Virus genome (UHGV): UHGV-0205415
Direction: 5' to 3' (one strand)
DNA length: 39,456 bases
From: a virus
Shown: positions 29,597 through 36,218 of the stretch, one piece after another
Layout of the letters: every line of letters starts with the position of its first letter
How positions within the stretch are numbered: the stretch's first letter is position 1
Made by a program: the position numbers and the translations under genes
Notes under the pieces: generated by a model
Told to the model about the DNA's origin: nothing
Database searches by the model: none
Seen by the model: only the letters and a program-made list of their open reading frames with translations

Positions 29597-32062
29597 TCAG
29601 AATCCTCCTTTCTTCTTGGACTGCGGTTCCTCGCGTTCACGGCGGCGCATTTCAGCAGACTGTTGGTCTGTGTCATAAATAGCGCCATTTGCCTGAATGC
29701 AATACACCGTGCCGGTATTGCCATGACGATTGAGACGAAGGATTAGTTCGGTTTCACCAGGTGGAACACTGTCATCAAAAGCACCTTCACGATGGATCCC
29801 CACCCAATAATCGCAATCCTGTTCAATCTGCCCTGTATCTCGTGAGTCACTTGGTAATGGGCGTTTATTGGTTCGGCTTTCCAGTGCGCGGTTAAGCTGC
29901 GTCAGAAGCACAACAACGCAATCAAGCTCTTTGGCAAGGTTCTTCAGTCCTTTGGTGATCATGCCGTAAGCAAGGTCGTTGCGATCGGCCTTCTCAGCGG
30001 TCATTAGTGTCAGGTAATCGACCAGAATCATGCCAACACATCCTTTTTCTCGCTTGATTCGACGGCTTTCGCTAACGATTTGAGCCAGAGATAATCCCGG
30101 CGTGTCGTCGATGTAAAGCAGGTCGATTTCACTCAAACGATTAGCTGTTTCGATCGCCCTGTTGAAGTCACCATCGTAATCACCCTGATAGCCGTCATCA
30201 GCGTCATTTGTCGCCGGAAGGTAAAAAATATTCGGGTTAACACCAGACTTCTGCCCTACCAGTTTTTCCAGTATCTGATCACCTGGCATTTCAAGGCTGA
30301 ACATCAGAGCGGGCTTTTTCTCATGCACTGCGCAGTTGATTGCCATCTGGCTGTATAGCGTGGTGTTGTGGGTTAGAATGTATCCGTCAGTTGCATACAA
30401 ATGTCTCTCGTGGGATACCATGATGCAAATGCACTCTTCACGTCCAATATACTCAACCGACGTGATAACAGGCGCACTTGTTTTGATGCGTTTTGCAGTG
30501 AATTTTTGCTTCAGGCGTGGAGATTTTATGTGTGATAGAACCTCATCAGGCAACCTGATTGCGCAAATATGGGCATCCATACCTTTGCGCATTTCTCCCT
30601 TATAACTGAATTTCGGCTCCTGTTTGGTTGTCATACGACACACGCCACCAAGAGAATGCACCAGCCGCTTTACACCATCTGACAGGAACTTGCTTGCCGA
30701 GCTAAAGCGCAGGGCATTATTTCCTTCAACCCAACCATCGGTTTCAAGTAATCCGCATAGAACATCAATACGAGTTTGCTTATCAGCAGAAAAAATAATA
30801 TCCGGGATAATTTTAATCTCTGACATCCGGCCGTAGATACCAAGCCGTTGCATAACCCGCGTAAGAGATAATTTGCGGCTAAACTTGTGAGATAGGGAGT
30901 AATCGCAGCCAGAAACATGCCTGACTTCAATATCGTCACCCACTTCAGATCTTACTCGCTCAATGATGTATGGTTCCGTCATGCTGATTCGTGGCGTACC
31001 TGCAAGATTTCCATCGCCAAGTAACGCACCTAACAGCCATGGGCTAATCCCTAAATCAACAGGCAATCCGAAGTCACCGCTAATACCAGGAACATGAATG
31101 CGGCTTTGATAGCGAACGCATTCCATCATGTCCCGTAGGCGGCAGGTGTCTACAACATCAACGCCACCGGTAATACGGTTACTATGAATTTCCCACAAAT
31201 GATCATCCGCGCAATCAACGGTTCTTCCGTCAGAGAACGTAACTCGGTAAATATCTCGCTCCCCTTGAGGAAAAACTCCAGACACGAATGATGGTTGTCC
31301 ATCCACTGATGCTAGGGAATCTCCAACACATACGTCACGAAATGTTGTCCATGAACCATCAGCAAGCAAAATGCGTGAATTAAGCGGTTGCGCTTTCCCC
31401 ATCTTAGGGCGAGCGCCAATGACAAACAGAGAGCCTTTCACCAGACCTTTCGGTGACAGCATCCTGTCCAGCGATGGGATCCCTGTGCTCATTCCTCGTT
31501 GTTCGCCTGACGGGTCAAATCGCTTCTCAAGGTCGCTAACCCAGTCTTCCATGACCTCACCAAATGAGCGAAGGCCGCGACGCGATCCGGTTTTTGCATG
31601 GTCTGTCAGTTGCGTGAAAATCGCCTGAATAGCTTCGTACTTCTGCGTTGCAGTCATTCCGTTGCGGGAATAGAGCAATTCCGTCGCTTCAGTCATGCGG
31701 TTGATGGCGTAGCGTTCCATTGCGGTTTCACGAACCTGCATTGCATAGGCAACGATGTTTGCTGCGCTTGGCGTGTTCTTTGCGATCTCAGCGATATAAG
31801 CAAAACCGCCAACAGACGCCGTTAACGATTTACGCTCCAGTTCATCGAAAAGCGTCAGGCCATCTACTGGCTTTTGCTCCCGGTGCATTCTGGTTATTTC
31901 TTCGAAAAGGATTTTGTGTGGTCGGCAGTAAAATGAATCAGGCTTCAGCATCGCCAGAACTTTCTGGACGCGCTCACTGCTGTCATCATCCAGAAGCAAT
32001 CCACCAATCACCGCCTGCTCTGCCTCGATGCTATGGGGCGGCGCATAAAAATTATCGGTCAT
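29597..32062 (-). CDS. replicative DnaB-family helicase interrupted by an intein
   Basis: ORF 29597..32077; ATG at 32062 after GAGGGTG; DnaB motifs GARPKMGK ... TTLYSQMAINCAV ... LMFSLEMP flank a 343-aa insertion. Confidence 0.85.
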   Translation of the reverse strand: MTDNFYAPPHSIEAEQAVIGGLLLDDDSSERVQKVLAMLKPDSFYCRPHKILFEEITRMHREQKPVDGLTLFDELERKSLTASVGGFAYIAEIAKNTPSAANIVAYAMQVRETAMERYAINRMTEATELLYSRNGMTATQKYEAIQAIFTQLTDHAKTGSRRGLRSFGEVMEDWVSDLEKRFDPSGEQRGMSTGIPSLDRMLSPKGLVKGSLFVIGARPKMGKAQPLNSRILLADGSWTTFRDVCVGDSLASVDGQPSFVSGVFPQGERDIYRVTFSDGRTVDCADDHLWEIHSNRITGGVDVVDTCRLRDMMECVRYQSRIHVPGISGDFGLPVDLGISPWLLGALLGDGNLAGTPRISMTEPYIIERVRSEVGDDIEVRHVSGCDYSLSHKFSRKLSLTRVMQRLGIYGRMSEIKIIPDIIFSADKQTRIDVLCGLLETDGWVEGNNALRFSSASKFLSDGVKRLVHSLGGVCRMTTKQEPKFSYKGEMRKGMDAHICAIRLPDEVLSHIKSPRLKQKFTAKRIKTSAPVITSVEYIGREECICIMVSHERHLYATDGYILTHNTTLYSQMAINCAVHEKKPALMFSLEMPGDQILEKLVGQKSGVNPNIFYLPATNDADDGYQGDYDGDFNRAIETANRLSEIDLLYIDDTPGLSLAQIVSESRRIKREKGCVGMILVDYLTLMTAEKADRNDLAYGMITKGLKNLAKELDCVVVLLTQLNRALESRTNKRPLPSDSRDTGQIEQDCDYWVGIHREGAFDDSVPPGETELILRLNRHGNTGTVYCIQANGAIYDTDQQSAEMRRREREEPQSKKKGGF
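30365..31393 (-). mobile_element. intein with LAGLIDADG homing endonuclease motifs inserted in helicase Walker A (P-loop)
   Basis: Insertion between GK and TT of P-loop; ends in THN with Thr as +1 residue; LLGALLGDGN and LCGLLETDGW motifs; begins with Ala (no Cys/Ser nucleophile). Confidence 0.75.
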
Positions 32063-32951
32063 CGTGTTCACCCTCACGAACTTTCAGGTAGGTATTATCG
32101 TTAAGCAGGAAATCAAATCCCTTTTTGTGCCAGACGGTTCCGCGCTGATGGTTTGGGCGCTCTTCGAACATCCATCGGCAATTTTCGCCTACGTAGCTCA
32201 AATAATTTCTCCAGTCCTGCATCGTGAACCCATGCCCGTCAAGCTGGCGGGTTATCACTCCGGCTTTGCGCCAGAACGTTCGGATCTGGTTTTTACGCTT
32301 GTCATTCAGTGCGCGGATTTTTGGCGCTTCAGGAAGGATTTCGTGGTAAGCATCGACAACATCCTGACAGCTAACGGAAGGTTTTTTCTTGTCAGACTTT
32401 TTGTCTGCTGCGGTACTCTCTAATACGTCAGTATTAGAGATAATATTATTATATTCTTTATCTGTGGTAATTTGCTGGTAATCTGCTGGTACAGTATTGC
32501 TTGCAGGCATTGGTATTGCTGGCTTTGAGGTGGTAATTTGCTGGTAATCTGCTGGTACAAAATTTGACTGATAATCGTCATATTTCTCTACCGAGAAAAC
32601 TGAGAATTTACCGTGTGAAACCCAGTCAATCATGCCGAGTTTTTTGAACTTTCTAAGCAGGTACTGAACGCGATCTGGTTTGAGTCCTGTTTCAAACGCC
32701 AGAGAGTTTCTACCGCCAAGTAGCTTCCCTCTGCCTACCAGAATTTCTCCTGCGTCAGTCATTACATACTCAGGCGTATGCTTTGCTTTGAGGATTAAGT
32801 GAACCCACAGATGCGCAGCTTCTGCGTCCTTGTAAAACGGCACATCCATAATTTTACGGTGCAGCAAGGCATACCCCTTACCGCTGCTTTGATGCGGTTG
32901 TTGTAGCCTTCTGGCCTCTCTGGCTTCGGCTAGATTAGATATGTTACTCAT
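32052..32951 (-). CDS. replication initiator (O / P22 gp18-like) containing origin iterons
   Basis: Position upstream of helicase; internal DNA iterons encode repeated peptide [10 protein letters not shown]. Confidence 0.6.
32420..32565. repeat. candidate origin of replication: two identical 29-bp repeats (32465..32493, 32531..32559) built from TGCTGGTA-type iterons plus adjacent AT-rich tract
   Basis: Direct repeats and AT-rich stretch 32425..32460 read from sequence. Confidence 0.6.
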
Positions 32952-33094: not shown

Positions 33095-33168
33095 ACTCCT
33101 GTGGATTGATCCAGTCTTTCTACATCAGGCCTCGAAGAATTCGCCGTTCTTCGGGGCTTTTTCTTTTG
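33095..33168 (+). ncRNA. candidate oop-like antisense RNA ending in a terminator inside the cII 3' end
   Basis: Hairpin CTCGAAGAA-ttcgccg-TTCTTCGGG followed by CTTTTTTCTTTT on plus strand at 33131..33168; analogous to lambda oop. Confidence 0.3.
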
Positions 33169-33403
33169 TCAGCATTCTGGCTACTTTCTTAGCCAGTTCC
33201 GCCAACTCCTCGTCTTCAACACCCCATTCAAGAACAGCCAGAAGCATTCCCATTTTTGGGATGAAGCTGTCTTTCCATCGCGAAATTTGCGATTCATTAA
33301 TCCCTAACGCGTCGGCAACCTTTCGCTGACCACGTACAGCAATTCGATTCAGGATGTTGCTTGTAATTGCATTCGCTTTCTTGCGAGTACTTGTAAGTTG
33401 CAT
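33125..33403 (-). CDS. cII: CII-like transcriptional activator
   Basis: SQISRWK...[10 protein letters not shown] motif as in lambda CII. Confidence 0.8.
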
Positions 33404-33420
33404 ATGTAAGTATTTCCTTA

Positions 33421-33454
33421 ACTAATAAGAAGTTATGCGCATCAACTTATGCGC
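33421..33454 (-). terminator. tR1-like terminator candidate between nutR and cII
   Basis: GCGCA/TGCGC hairpin with moderately U-rich tail on minus strand; weak. Confidence 0.3.
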
Positions 33455-33461
33455 GTTGTAT

Positions 33462-33505
33462 TCCCGCATTTCGGCGGGAATGAGGACCATGACTGTTAAA
33501 GAGCG
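33462..33505 (-). promoter_or_regulatory. nutR: boxA (CGCTCTTTAACAG) followed by boxB hairpin
   Basis: boxA matches lambda consensus; boxB stem-loop TCCCGC-cgaaat-GCGGGA, the same sequence as in nutL. Confidence 0.55.
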
Positions 33506-33511
33506 GTGTTA

Positions 33512-33712
33512 CTATTTGTTTTTCTTGTTGCTTGGGAAAGGACGAACTTCCTCTCCAATCACACTGCCATCAGGCTTTACCGTAACCATAATGTTACGGC
33601 CTGCCAGAATGGCCTTGCTGATAGCGCACTGGATTACACCAAAGTCACTGGCTGCTTTAGCCTGTCCATGGATTTTGGCGTAATCGGCAAGTGTCATTCG
33701 AATCATATGCAC
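33512..33712 (-). CDS. cro: Cro repressor
   Basis: [20 protein letters not shown]...FPSNKK resembles lambda Cro. Confidence 0.85.
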
Positions 33713-33735
33713 TCTCCGTTATTAACCATGAACAA

Positions 33736-33806
33736 AGAATACTACAGGTATTCAAAGCAATCAATACTTAGGGTATTTTTAGTTTAAGTACCTTAGCTAT
33801 TAGAAT
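33736..33806. promoter_or_regulatory. OR region: three 15-bp operators of type AATACnnnnnGTATT (33738..33752, 33763..33777, weaker 33787..33801) with divergent pR and pRM
   Basis: Operators spaced about 25 bp; pR -35 TTGATT and -10 TATTCT overlap first two; TAGAAT 7 nt before cI ATG suggests leaderless cI mRNA. Confidence 0.6.
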
Positions 33807-33812
33807 TAAGCT

Positions 33813-34529
33813 ATGGAAAATAAAAAATCACTGACGACAGAACAGCTGGAAGACGCTAAGCGGCTTAAGGCTTTGTATGAGTCAAAAAAGAAAGAATTGG
33901 GAATAACCCAATACTCAATCGCTGATGAACTGGGTATCACCCAAGGAGCGGTAGGGCATTATCTTAATGGCAGAAATGCGCTAAACGTTGAGGTTGCATC
34001 TGGTTTTGCACGATTGTTGCAAGTCTCAATTGCTGATTTTAGCCAGTCAATTGCTGCCAAGGTTGCAGAACAGGCAGAAAGCCTTAAGAGCGATGCCAAC
34101 GTAAGGTATGCAGGGGAATACAGAGCAGGAAAGAGGTATCCGGTGTTAAGCAGTATCCAGGCTGGCTCGTGGTGTGAAGCATGCGAACCATACACCATTA
34201 AAGACATAGATGTTTGGCTTGAGTCTGACGCGCATATTCAAGGTAATGCGTTCTGGCTTAAAGTGGAAGGTGATTCAATGACGGCACCGGTTGGGTTAAG
34301 CATTCCAGAGGGAACATTCGTTCTTTTCGATACCGGAAGGGAGGCGATCAACGGCAGCTTGGTCATAGCAAAACTTTCTGACTCTAACGAAGCAACATTC
34401 AAGAAGCTGATAATCGACGGTGGAAATAAATACCTCAAGGGACTTAATCCTGCATGGCCTCTCGTGCCAATCAATGGAAACTGCAAGATTATAGGCGTTG
34501 CAATTGAGACAAAACTCAGACTGGTTTGA
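33813..34529 (+). CDS. cI: CI repressor (HTH plus S24 LexA-like autocleavage domain)
   Basis: LTTEQLEDAKRLKALYE N-terminus and C-terminal FWLKVEGDSM...FKKL resemble lambda CI. Confidence 0.9.
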   Translation: MENKKSLTTEQLEDAKRLKALYESKKKELGITQYSIADELGITQGAVGHYLNGRNALNVEVASGFARLLQVSIADFSQSIAAKVAEQAESLKSDANVRYAGEYRAGKRYPVLSSIQAGSWCEACEPYTIKDIDVWLESDAHIQGNAFWLKVEGDSMTAPVGLSIPEGTFVLFDTGREAINGSLVIAKLSDSNEATFKKLIIDGGNKYLKGLNPAWPLVPINGNCKIIGVAIETKLRLV

Positions 34530-34547
34530 TCACGCAAGGGGGCGCTT

Positions 34548-34916
34548 ATGGTTGGAACCGCTATAGCAAGCTTTTTTGGGATGTTGGCAATCTCGACAAT
34601 TTACGGCTTAGCGCATGCTTTTATTGCGAAATCTCTATCAGAAAAAATAAGCCAGGCTTGGGCGCATAGATCAGCTCGTTTCATGATTCTGGTGATCATA
34701 GCAATACAAGGGATATCTGTATTTATCCTCTATGGATCAAGCTTATACCTATTGTATCAAGGCGCGACATTTACGCCTTACACCAGTGATTACGGAACTC
34801 TATACGATGGTAGTGAAGACATCACTGTGGCTTGGATCGTCTTTGGTTTATCTATGGCCGTGTCTGTTGTAGCAGACATCATTAAGGTAATTCTCGTCTT
34901 AACCTTCGCTGACTAA
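34548..34916 (+). CDS. three-transmembrane-segment membrane protein immediately downstream of cI (rex position)
   Basis: AAGGGGG RBS; three long hydrophobic segments; co-oriented with cI, 18 nt after its stop. Confidence 0.5.
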   Translation: MVGTAIASFFGMLAISTIYGLAHAFIAKSLSEKISQAWAHRSARFMILVIIAIQGISVFILYGSSLYLLYQGATFTPYTSDYGTLYDGSEDITVAWIVFGLSMAVSVVADIIKVILVLTFAD

Positions 34917-35002
34917 CCTATAATCCCGGCAGCAATAGCTATCGGGATCCACTTCACATATCCCGCATAAAAAGCACTGAACAAGCAGACACCGAAAAAA
35001 TA

Positions 35003-35089
35003 AATATCCTTTGTATTCATCTGTTTATCATTATTCCATCAAAAATAAATACCCTGGGTATTTACACAATAAAATACCTACAGTATTCT
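35003..35089 (+). promoter_or_regulatory. OL region and pL: operators AATATCCTTTGTATT, AATACCCTGGGTATT, AATACCTACAGTATT; pL -35 TTTACA, -10 TATTCT
   Basis: Same operator family as OR; promoter hexamers 17 nt apart overlapping operators. Confidence 0.55.
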
Positions 35090-35134
35090 TTAGCCATCAG
35101 CAGGACGCTGGTAGCCAAACGGAACAGATTGGCA

Positions 35135-35176
35135 GGCTCTTTAACATTGATGGGATTGTCCCGCCGAAATGCGGGA
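35135..35176 (+). promoter_or_regulatory. nutL: boxA-like GGCTCTTTAACA and boxB hairpin TCCCGC-cgaaat-GCGGGA
   Basis: Identical boxB sequence to nutR; located between pL and N. Confidence 0.5.
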
Positions 35177-35283
35177 ACCAAAGAGTAGTTGGCTTTGGGG
35201 TGATGTGAAGTGCAGCTGCACGACGGCAACCGGAAGATAAGCACCCGGCGCGTCACCGCCAAAGTCAATCATCGGAGGTCAGC

Positions 35284-35583
35284 ATGACAGTAGTCATTAC
35301 ATATCTGGCTGACGATAACGCCAGAAATCGCCGCAGAGCACGCAGACAGGATCAACGTGAACAGGCAATGCAAGAACAGCGACTGGCGCGAAAAATTGCG
35401 CTAAAGCTCTCTGGTTGCGTCAGAGCAGACAAAGCAGCATCACTCGGAAGCCTTCGCTGCAAGAAGACAGAAGAAGTCGAGAGTAAACAGAATCGTATTT
35501 ACTACCGCAAGCCACGCAGTGAAATGGGTGTGACTTGTGTTGGTCGCCAGAAAATGAAATTAGGCAGCAAACCACTTATTTGA
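35284..35583 (+). CDS. N: N-like antiterminator
   Basis: Arg-rich motif NARNRRRARRQ near N-terminus, C-terminus GVTCVGRQKMKLGSKPLI like lambda N; GGAGG RBS. Confidence 0.75.
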   Translation: MTVVITYLADDNARNRRRARRQDQREQAMQEQRLARKIALKLSGCVRADKAASLGSLRCKKTEEVESKQNRIYYRKPRSEMGVTCVGRQKMKLGSKPLI

Positions 35584-35594
35584 GAGGAATTAAT

Positions 35595-36218
35595 ATGTCA
35601 TCAATCCGCTTAACTACGAGAATGAAAGAGGAAATCGCTCGTAACGCTTTAATTAAGTCTGGGGTTTTCACTGAACTTGAAGAAGTAACAAAGTTAAAGA
35701 ACCAGCTTGCACTTGACGCCAGAGTTATTGCGTTTGGCGGTAAAAAGAAAACTGAGGAAGTGGATCAGTTATCATCCAAGTTGGTAGCTATAAGTGAAGA
35801 ACTTGAAAAGATGGGATGTTCATTTTACTCATACGATGTTCGTTCTACTTCAATTTATCTTACTGTATCTGGCAGAAGGGTTGGATGGCATTCATATGGG
35901 AAAGACGGCAACGGCGAAGATATATTGCTCCCTACTCCGACAAAAGATAAATGCATGTTTGACGCAGAGCACGAAATAACAAAAAGGTTTGATGAAATCT
36001 GCGCATTACAACAAAAATTTGAAGCCAAGAAAAAGGATATCGAATCAAATGTATGGGCTGCTTTAAACTCAGTCACAACAGTTAAGCGACTCATTGAAGT
36101 TTGGCCTGAAAGCAAAGAATTGCTACCAAAAGAAGCAGATAAAGCAAGTGCAGCACTTCCTGCTTTACGGGTAGAAGATTTGAATAAGATGATTGGACTT
36201 CCTTCCGAGGCCGCGTAG
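35595..36218 (+). CDS. hypothetical 207-aa protein directly downstream of N
   Basis: ORF 35535..36218; ATG at 35595 after GAGAGGA; no family recognised. Confidence 0.5.
   Translation: MSSIRLTTRMKEEIARNALIKSGVFTELEEVTKLKNQLALDARVIAFGGKKKTEEVDQLSSKLVAISEELEKMGCSFYSYDVRSTSIYLTVSGRRVGWHSYGKDGNGEDILLPTPTKDKCMFDAEHEITKRFDEICALQQKFEAKKKDIESNVWAALNSVTTVKRLIEVWPESKELLPKEADKASAALPALRVEDLNKMIGLPSEAA

Follow-up and report, generated by a model that had tools for sequence, protein, structure and literature searches.

hkaS, a gene directly downstream of cI in HK620-type lambdoid immunity regions, encodes a predicted three-helix inner-membrane protein with a possible role in phage exclusion

The window analysed in this study is the whole 39,456-nucleotide stretch of DNA of the virus genome UHGV-0205415, and it contains a lambdoid immunity region with the gene order cII(-), cro(-), OR, cI(+), hkaS(+), OL/pL, nutL, N(+) (Table 1). 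The cI gene, whose product is 99.6% identical to the repressor of coliphage HK620, ends with a TGA codon at 34527-34529. It is followed by an 18-nt spacer, tcacgcAAGGGGGcgctt, and by an open reading frame that begins with ATG at 34548 and ends with TAA at 34914-34916. The ATG lies 5 nt downstream of a Shine-Dalgarno sequence, AAGGGGG. Coordinates and sequence thus bear out the description in the earlier note of a 122-residue gene with this ribosome-binding site, 18 nt past the cI stop. The note had also assigned the gene to the rex position. In lambda, rexA and rexB occupy the interval between cI and OL (cI-rexA-rexB-OL), and the order cI-hkaS-OL/pL-N in the window agrees with that assignment, with N forming the far edge of the slot. 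In addition to the PHROG match listed in Table 1, the N product matched Pfam N_peptide with an E-value of 0.0017, under the family cutoff. The pRM promoter, directed towards cI, must lie inside the OR segment. A putative -10-like TAGAAT at 33801-33806, recognised by eye, would give a near-leaderless cI mRNA.

Table 1. Features of the immunity region of the window, with positions counted from its first nucleotide
Feature	Position	Strand	Basis
cII	33125-33403	-	window ORF
cro	33512-33712	-	window ORF
OR1-OR3 operators, between cro and cI	33737..33802	.	two perfect ATAC-N5-GTAT cores at 33739 and 33764; HK620 annotates OR1-3 equivalently
cI repressor, 238 aa	33813..34529	+	Pfam HTH_3 (E 8e-10) and Peptidase_S24 (E 5e-24); phrog_4, transcriptional repressor
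cI-hkaS spacer with Shine-Dalgarno AAGGGGG (34536-34542)	34530..34547	+	read from sequence
hkaS, predicted inner-membrane protein of 122 aa	34548..34916	+	ORF; phrog_6534; AlphaFold2
hairpin, 7 nt past the hkaS stop, no U-tract	34923..34948	+	RNA fold of 34905-35010
OL operators and pL	about 35002-35096	+	operator cores; half-sites kept across lineages; HK620 annotation
OL3-like site	35002-35018		operator core
OL2	35047-35063		operator core
OL1	35072-35088		operator core
pL, -35 TTTACA, -10 TATTCT	35061-35089		promoter-like match
N antiterminator, first gene of the pL operon	35284..35583	+	phrog_271, anti-termination protein N-like, E 3.8e-36

The open reading frame is hkaS, which was catalogued in coliphage HK620 in 2001 (GenBank AF335538; protein AAK28867, product "unknown"). 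The proteins of the window and HK620 are 98.4% identical, with two amino acid differences. The window protein matched phrog_6534, a family of unknown function, over residues 1-122 of 122 with an E-value of 1.2e-78, and its RefSeq entry is the hypothetical protein WP_000233129. With the HK620 annotation and the PHROG family in hand, the gene is therefore a known uncharacterised ORF and not a new gene. A literature search found no paper on hkaS, AAK28867, WP_000233129 or phrog_6534, and no report of a phenotype, expression or localisation; hkaS is also absent from the DefensePredictor supplements.

The segment of the window from 33400 to 35700 is 98-99% identical to the immunity regions of HK620, HZ41, HF4s, vB_EcoP-611R6, HK630, HK140, mEpX2, phi296, phi367 and two Stx2c phages. 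Between HK620 and the window, the immunity-region DNA is 98.6% identical, with cro, cI, OL/pL and N as common neighbours, whereas the cI-hkaS spacer is 17 nt long in HK620 and 18 nt in the window. The similarity stops inside N, near 35475, and the left arms past N differ: HK620 carries hkaQ and the putative exclusion gene hkaP where the window has a gene at 35535..36218 (+), with ATG 35595 as the likely start. The product of this gene, the first after N, matched Nmad5 (nucleotide modification associated domain 5; PF18757, E 6e-71) and phrog_1965 of unknown function.

Scrutiny of the sequences within and downstream of hkaS revealed several minor features. The palindrome at the OL3-like site, AAATATCCTTTGTATTC, keeps its ATAY-N5-RTAT half-sites in all four lineages with a variable centre, as do OL1, OL2 and OR1-3, and it looks like the true OL3. 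In the GenBank record of HK620, OL3 is instead annotated 23 bp further along, at what corresponds to 35025-35041, and 34998-35028 bears the name of the terminator tIMM; as a candidate for the transcript end, the hairpin just past the hkaS stop is better than this region. A perfect operator core inside hkaS, ATACCTATTGTAT (34745-34757), was considered as an extra cI site and rejected, since it is present in the HK620-type lineage only and has non-consensus flanks; it is probably a by-product of the invariant YLLY codons. A hydrophobic ORF of 35 amino acids at 34913..35020 (-), MNTKDIYFFGVCLFSAFYAGYVKWIPIAIAAGIIG, is convergent to hkaS with overlapping stop codons, and is an annotated gene in HF4s. 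As a type I toxin or partner of hkaS it was rejected, with a pN/pS of 1.19, indels in 21 of 80 copies, no equivalent in the diverged lineages, and an ATG that directly adjoins an operator-like site; it behaves like non-coding DNA and is unlikely to be a gene. Searches of the window for Rfam families and tRNAs gave no match.

A promoter and terminator scan gave no promoter-like or terminator-like match in the cI-hkaS spacer. RNA folding of 34905-35010 gave a free energy of -17.6 kcal/mol (z -2.6) and the hairpin listed in Table 1, which the terminator scan did not call. Hairpins of differing sequence, none with a proper U-tract, occupy the same place behind hkaS in the Salmonella, L007 and Hafnia lineages. 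The cI-hkaS transcript probably ends at the hairpin of the window, which would serve as a terminator or a 3' stabiliser. In many lambdoid phages accessory proteins are encoded on the pRM transcript (PMC3564112), and the promoter of cI ranks with the most active ones of a prophage (PMC8585504). Taken together with the spacing and the lack of intergenic signals, these reports make it very likely that hkaS is co-expressed with cI in the lysogen. Co-transcription with cI had been proposed in the earlier note, and it is strongly implied by the spacer of 17-20 nt, the Shine-Dalgarno sequence, the signal-free intergenic region and the hairpins behind the stop codon in four lineages. In the lysogen, the transcript that carries cI and hkaS would then start at pRM, and during establishment at pRE.

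Evolutionary rates were estimated against the Hafnia-type allele, which was chosen because synonymous sites are still unsaturated there. For hkaS, dS was 0.69 and dN 0.097 (dN/dS 0.14), and for cI, dS was 0.71 and dN 0.024 (dN/dS 0.034). The two genes have diverged together, with a dS of about 0.7 for both, and the protein encoded by hkaS changed about four-fold faster than cI, or four to five times faster when cI and cro are both considered. In the Salmonella and L007 lineages, which are more distant, identity is 86-89% for cI and 86-94% for cro, and 61% and 52% for HkaS. Once synonymous sites are saturated, dN of hkaS is 0.34-0.44, still far from saturation. HkaS keeps its length of exactly 122 amino acids without any indel even at 52% identity, and an alignment of seven sequences that reaches this level of divergence has 43 invariant positions. 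A Shine-Dalgarno-like AAGG(A/G) precedes hkaS in every lineage. Judged by these sequence comparisons, hkaS is under purifying selection.

Polymorphism was examined in 81 near-identical copies, consisting of the window and 80 IMG/VR loci. The segregating sites were 17 synonymous and 21 non-synonymous in hkaS, compared with 32 and 6 in cI, which corresponds to a pN/pS of 0.38 for hkaS versus 0.05 for cI (Fisher p = 6e-4). All of the 80 IMG/VR copies of hkaS are intact. Frameshifted alleles were observed in HF4s, P0006, P0007 and P0009, so that hkaS is dispensable for phage growth, as expected for an accessory gene. In these alleles the N-terminus comes from an overlapping frame (window 34526..34669, +) with a TTG start inside the cI stop region, and HF4s (locus L002, 2147-2514) annotates only a 77-aa remnant of hkaS. 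The pN/pS of 0.38 compared with 0.05 for cI, the frameshifted alleles and the narrowness of this orphan family would all suit a dispensable passenger without significant function, kept by its linkage to cI only. We regard this as very improbable, since dN/dS is only 0.14 at a dS of 0.7, dN stays at 0.34-0.44 despite saturated synonymous sites, and the exact length, the invariant residues, the Shine-Dalgarno sequence and the intactness of every IMG/VR copy have been preserved.

The linkage of hkaS to cI was determined in the window, HK620, nine contigs (E. coli, Salmonella and Hafnia-like) and 79 of the 80 IMG/VR loci, the 80th being cut at a contig end. In all homologues examined with enough flanking sequence, hkaS lies 17-20 nt after a cI of at least 86% identity, with a Shine-Dalgarno sequence in front of it and OL/pL and an N gene behind it. 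The spacer was 17, 18 and 19 nt long in 63, 13 and 3 of the IMG/VR loci, respectively. These length variants arise within or beside the stretch of G residues in the ribosome-binding site (GGGG, GGGGG or GGGGGA), and the variation could alter the efficiency of hkaS translation. Carriers of the gene include P22-like podoviruses, lambda-like siphoviruses and Stx phages, and the flanking replication, recombination and N genes vary between the contig loci. The mobile unit is therefore cro-cI-hkaS-OL, and the function of hkaS, being carried by such different phages, is independent of the virion or lysis genes of the carrier.

HkaS formed 12 clusters at 90% identity in a word-indexed search that covered 5.8 billion proteins. 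When 1.84 billion representatives were searched exhaustively with a HMMER profile, one full-length cluster at 50% identity and one fragment were recovered. No chromosomal relative was found among these 1.84 billion representatives, and a scan of species-representative genomes gave no HkaS match. By these searches, HkaS forms a narrow orphan family limited to one immunity module. Among complete E. coli genomes, 146 of 5426 (2.7%) matched a cI plus hkaS query, all 146 covering at least 80% of it. In the prophage of E. coli O145:H28 RM12581 (locus L013, 3604-5693), an IS3-family element lies about 0.9 kb 3' of hkaS and the expected N is not annotated, with cI and hkaS intact.

This distribution bears on the idea that HkaS serves lysogenic conversion or host fitness without any connection to phages, by altering a host transporter, a sensor kinase or tolerance to envelope stress. 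It is common for small membrane proteins to work by binding to larger ones. The idea gains from the 2.7% of complete E. coli genomes in which hkaS is intact, and from the one carrier prophage with an IS3 element where N should be; expression would moreover be constitutive, from the most active prophage promoter (PMC8585504). However, no characterised gene of this slot has such a role, and the family is confined to one immunity module without chromosomal relatives. We consider a host-fitness role rather unlikely.

The interval between cI and N is a known mosaic hotspot, which also holds bstA (PMC8585504). In the window and all related loci, only one ORF lies between cI and OL, with no RexA-type partner. 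The equivalent slot of P22 is empty, the c2 stop being separated from the OL block by 38 nt. More distant cI relatives have other contents in the slot. In phage 434, whose cI is 52% identical, it holds hex. In Cronobacter phage ENT39118 (cI 65% identical; locus L095, 2193-3122), it contains an unannotated hydrophilic ORF of 120 amino acids and a short, S24-only 'CI-like repressor', unrelated to hkaS; this is a further instance of turnover in the post-cI slot. Exclusion is the usual function of accessory genes carried on the pRM transcript, as exemplified by rexAB, stk of 933W and hex of 434 (PMC3564112). The characterised genes of the slot, rexAB, stk, hex and bstA, all interfere with other phages.

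BstA of BTP1 and Stk of 933W are prophage defence proteins, and their genes lie downstream of cI and share its promoter (PMC8585504; PMC3564112). In contrast to HkaS, both are cytoplasmic and domain-bearing: BstA acts at sites of phage DNA replication and Stk is a tyrosine kinase (PMC8585504; PMC3564112). The hex gene follows cI directly on the pRM transcript in the closest well-studied relative of this cI, as hkaS follows its own cI, and Hex excludes P22 and also lowers induction (PMC3564112). Unlike hkaS, however, hex overlaps the cI stop. The annotated Hex consists of a signal peptide and a hydrophilic, soluble body, and is therefore a different kind of protein from the polytopic HkaS. The annotated Hex ORF (lambda imm434, locus L096, 2109-2513) starts with a typical signal peptide, MIRIAALLSILLTTSANSEC, which sits oddly with the reported action of Hex on the cytoplasmic, RecA-mediated cleavage of the repressor; according to the record itself, the paper has a problem with the start codon.

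The precedent of Hex raises the question of whether HkaS modulates the lysogeny of its own prophage, either by damping RecA-dependent cI cleavage, as reported for Hex, or by acting on membrane proteases that control cII, such as FtsH. A deletion of hex raises spontaneous induction in 434 (PMC3564112), the best-studied relative of the present cI. In favour of this reading, hkaS occurs with one cI lineage only (at least 86% identical), and the most conserved parts of HkaS, the loop KISQAWAHRxARF, part of which is modelled as helix 31-38, and the invariant C-terminus, are predicted to be cytoplasmic. On the other hand, HkaS and Hex are unrelated, with an hhalign probability of 0.1%, the short spacer would by itself produce strict linkage to cI, as for rexAB in lambda, and evolution four to five times faster than that of cI and cro is unexpected for a tightly co-adapted regulator. 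Such modulation therefore appears improbable to us, and more so than a role in host fitness.

We then examined the protein itself. Kyte-Doolittle plots with 19-residue windows gave hydrophobic peaks at residues 9-27, 45-63 and 94-121. The AlphaFold2 model, built from an input alignment of only seven sequences, had a mean pLDDT of 92.6 and a pTM of 0.80, and contained helices at residues 2-29, 41-73 and 89-121, a short helix at 31-38, and a small beta-hairpin in the second loop. HkaS is thus confidently modelled as a three-helix bundle, and both the hydropathy peaks and the three modelled helices agree with the three hydrophobic segments described in the earlier note. The loop of residues 28-44 contains four K/R, whereas the loop of residues 71-93 contains none and has four D/E. 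From the positive-inside rule, an N-out/C-in topology is predicted, in which the N-terminus and the second loop face the periplasm, and the first loop and the C-terminus face the cytoplasm. An N-terminal signal peptide (AHA, residues 21-23) was rejected, as the AXA motif is not conserved.

Conservation is distributed unevenly over these parts. The cytoplasmic loop is the most conserved, with a mean pairwise identity of 71%, and the last ten residues, K-x-ILVLTFAD, are nearly invariant. The periplasmic loop is the least conserved (50%), a pattern that would suit a loop in contact, outside the membrane, with phage components that change. Invariant polar residues within the helices are Q54, S65, Y67, Y70, S106, D110 and K113.

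Relatives of known function were sought by sequence, profile and fold. In Pfam, the sole transporter-like match was to Cation_ATPase_C, at 18.5 bits against a cutoff of 27.3 bits (E 0.0018), and it covered hydrophobic helices only; it is sub-threshold noise. NCBIfam gave no match, PADLOC-DB 2.0 returned no defence family at E<=1, and PHROGs contained nothing beyond phrog_6534 at a meaningful E-value. No RexB, Sie or Imm family of Pfam or PHROGs matched at E<=1. Pairwise hhalign comparisons gave probabilities of 0.7% with lambda RexB, 0.3% with P22 SieA, 0.1% with P22 SieB, 0.4% with P22 holin 13, 1.4% with GtrA, 0.1% with 434 Hex, and less than 1.5% with each of gp17, HK620 hkaP and hkaQ. A sequence profile search of the PDB found no match. 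In fold searches, no BFVD hit reached E<=0.001 and Foldseek found none in the PDB, only generic helical bundles being returned. The impression recorded in the earlier note that the protein resembles neither RexA nor RexB is supported by the RexB comparison. Similarity to a transporter fragment, which the note had named as counter-evidence, amounted to the sub-threshold Cation_ATPase_C match. Of the families for which it had recommended an HMM comparison, RexB and SieB yielded no relative by hhalign, and Imm none in Pfam or PHROGs.

In spite of the lack of detectable homology, HkaS as predicted can be compared with lambda RexB, which likewise is a small polytopic inner-membrane protein encoded in the slot between cI and OL/pL. 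RexB is expressed from the pRM transcript (PMC8585504), as hkaS would be, judging by its spacing and the signal-free intergenic region. RexB has 144 amino acids compared with the 122 amino acids and three helices of HkaS, and only RexB has a RexA partner. RexB is usually described with four membrane helices. HkaS could therefore be imagined as a membrane effector of abortive infection, like RexB or lactococcal AbiZ but encoded by a single gene: a latent channel or holin-like protein that, triggered by a component of the superinfecting phage such as a holin or an injected protein, depolarises the membrane or lyses the cell prematurely. The slot is common to rexAB, bstA and stk, all of which are abortive-infection genes. 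The three transmembrane helices and the N-out/C-in orientation, as predicted, correspond to the topology of class I holins, and the invariant Q54, S106, D110 and K113 inside the helices might form the lining of an ion path or the contact surface of an oligomer. Unlike class I holins, however, HkaS ends with LVLTFAD and lacks their typical charged, cytoplasmic C-terminal tail, shows no homology to them, and is encoded in the immunity region instead of a lysis cassette. The slot contains no RexA-like sensor and no other gene beside hkaS, the two loops, 17 and 23 residues long, give scant room for sensing, and the hhalign probabilities with RexB and holin 13 are as low as given above. We judge this mechanism to be unlikely, if less so than the readings considered so far.

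P22 SieA, T4 Imm and HK97 gp15 offer another comparison. Each is a single small inner-membrane protein made by the resident phage and devoid of an enzymatic domain, as is proposed for HkaS, and SieA blocks DNA delivery (PMC10883804). The location of the genes differs, since P22 sieA lies in immI with its own promoter and not behind the repressor as hkaS does. The earlier note had named abortive infection, exclusion or lysogenic conversion as candidate functions, which is a reasonable reading. From position, topology and these precedents, we infer an exclusion function for HkaS. Our preferred, though tentative, proposal, to which we give somewhat less than even confidence, is that HkaS protects the lysogen against other phages by a membrane-level block to incoming phage DNA. 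HkaS has no domain big enough for sensing infection in the cytoplasm, which favours a passive block to entry over a triggered suicide channel. The precedents of the slot, together with membrane blockers of the SieA type, therefore lead us to rank the entry block first, followed by abortive infection, host fitness, modulation of lysogeny and, last, the lack of any function.

According to the entry-block proposal, hkaS would be an accessory (moron) gene of the HK620-type immunity module, and its product would be a three-helix bundle inserted in the inner membrane, with the N-terminus and the variable acidic loop on the periplasmic side and the conserved basic loop and the invariant C-terminal K-x-ILVLTFAD on the cytoplasmic side. 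Present constitutively and non-toxic, HkaS would stop the DNA of incoming phages from crossing the inner membrane, acting like P22 SieA, T4 Imm or HK97 gp15 while being unrelated to them. Several observations speak against the proposal. In the searches described above, HkaS resembled no known exclusion or defence protein in sequence or fold, and the frameshifted alleles show that loss of hkaS is tolerated. Its faster evolution may be explained by weak constraint on lipid-facing residues. Its most conserved surface is predicted to be cytoplasmic, which would fit an intracellular host or prophage partner equally well.

In its wider form, the proposal is that HkaS is the founder of a new family of single-gene, 122-residue inner-membrane anti-phage proteins, unrelated in sequence or fold to RexB, SieA, Imm and the catalogued defence proteins. 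Its range would be a single immunity module passed around among the P22-like, lambda-like and Stx prophages of Enterobacterales, and the rapid change of the periplasmic loop would be the mark of an arms race with the machinery by which incoming phages bring in their DNA. We hold this wider form to be possible but short of probable.

If HkaS does exclude phages, a minimal and genetically tractable membrane protein joins the few known entry blockers, one that is easily testable in the classic K-12 phages mEpX2, HK630 and HK140. Since about 3% of complete E. coli genomes carry hkaS, including those with O111, O145 and Stx2c prophages, it could affect phage typing, the host range of phages in therapy, and the spread of Stx phages. 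If HkaS instead tunes induction, it would have a bearing on the release of Shiga toxin. Either way, hkaS is a further case of the post-cI position serving as a slot for defence or accessory genes, a rule that it does not break, and it makes a sound and cheap experimental target rather than a surprise.

One further gene of the window, at some distance from the immunity slot, drew attention. The replicative helicase of the DnaB type encoded at 29597..32077 (-) has 826 amino acids compared with the usual length of about 445. About 330 inserted residues, with a match to LAGLIDADG_3, interrupt its DnaB_C domain, and the insertion is therefore an intein with a homing endonuclease.
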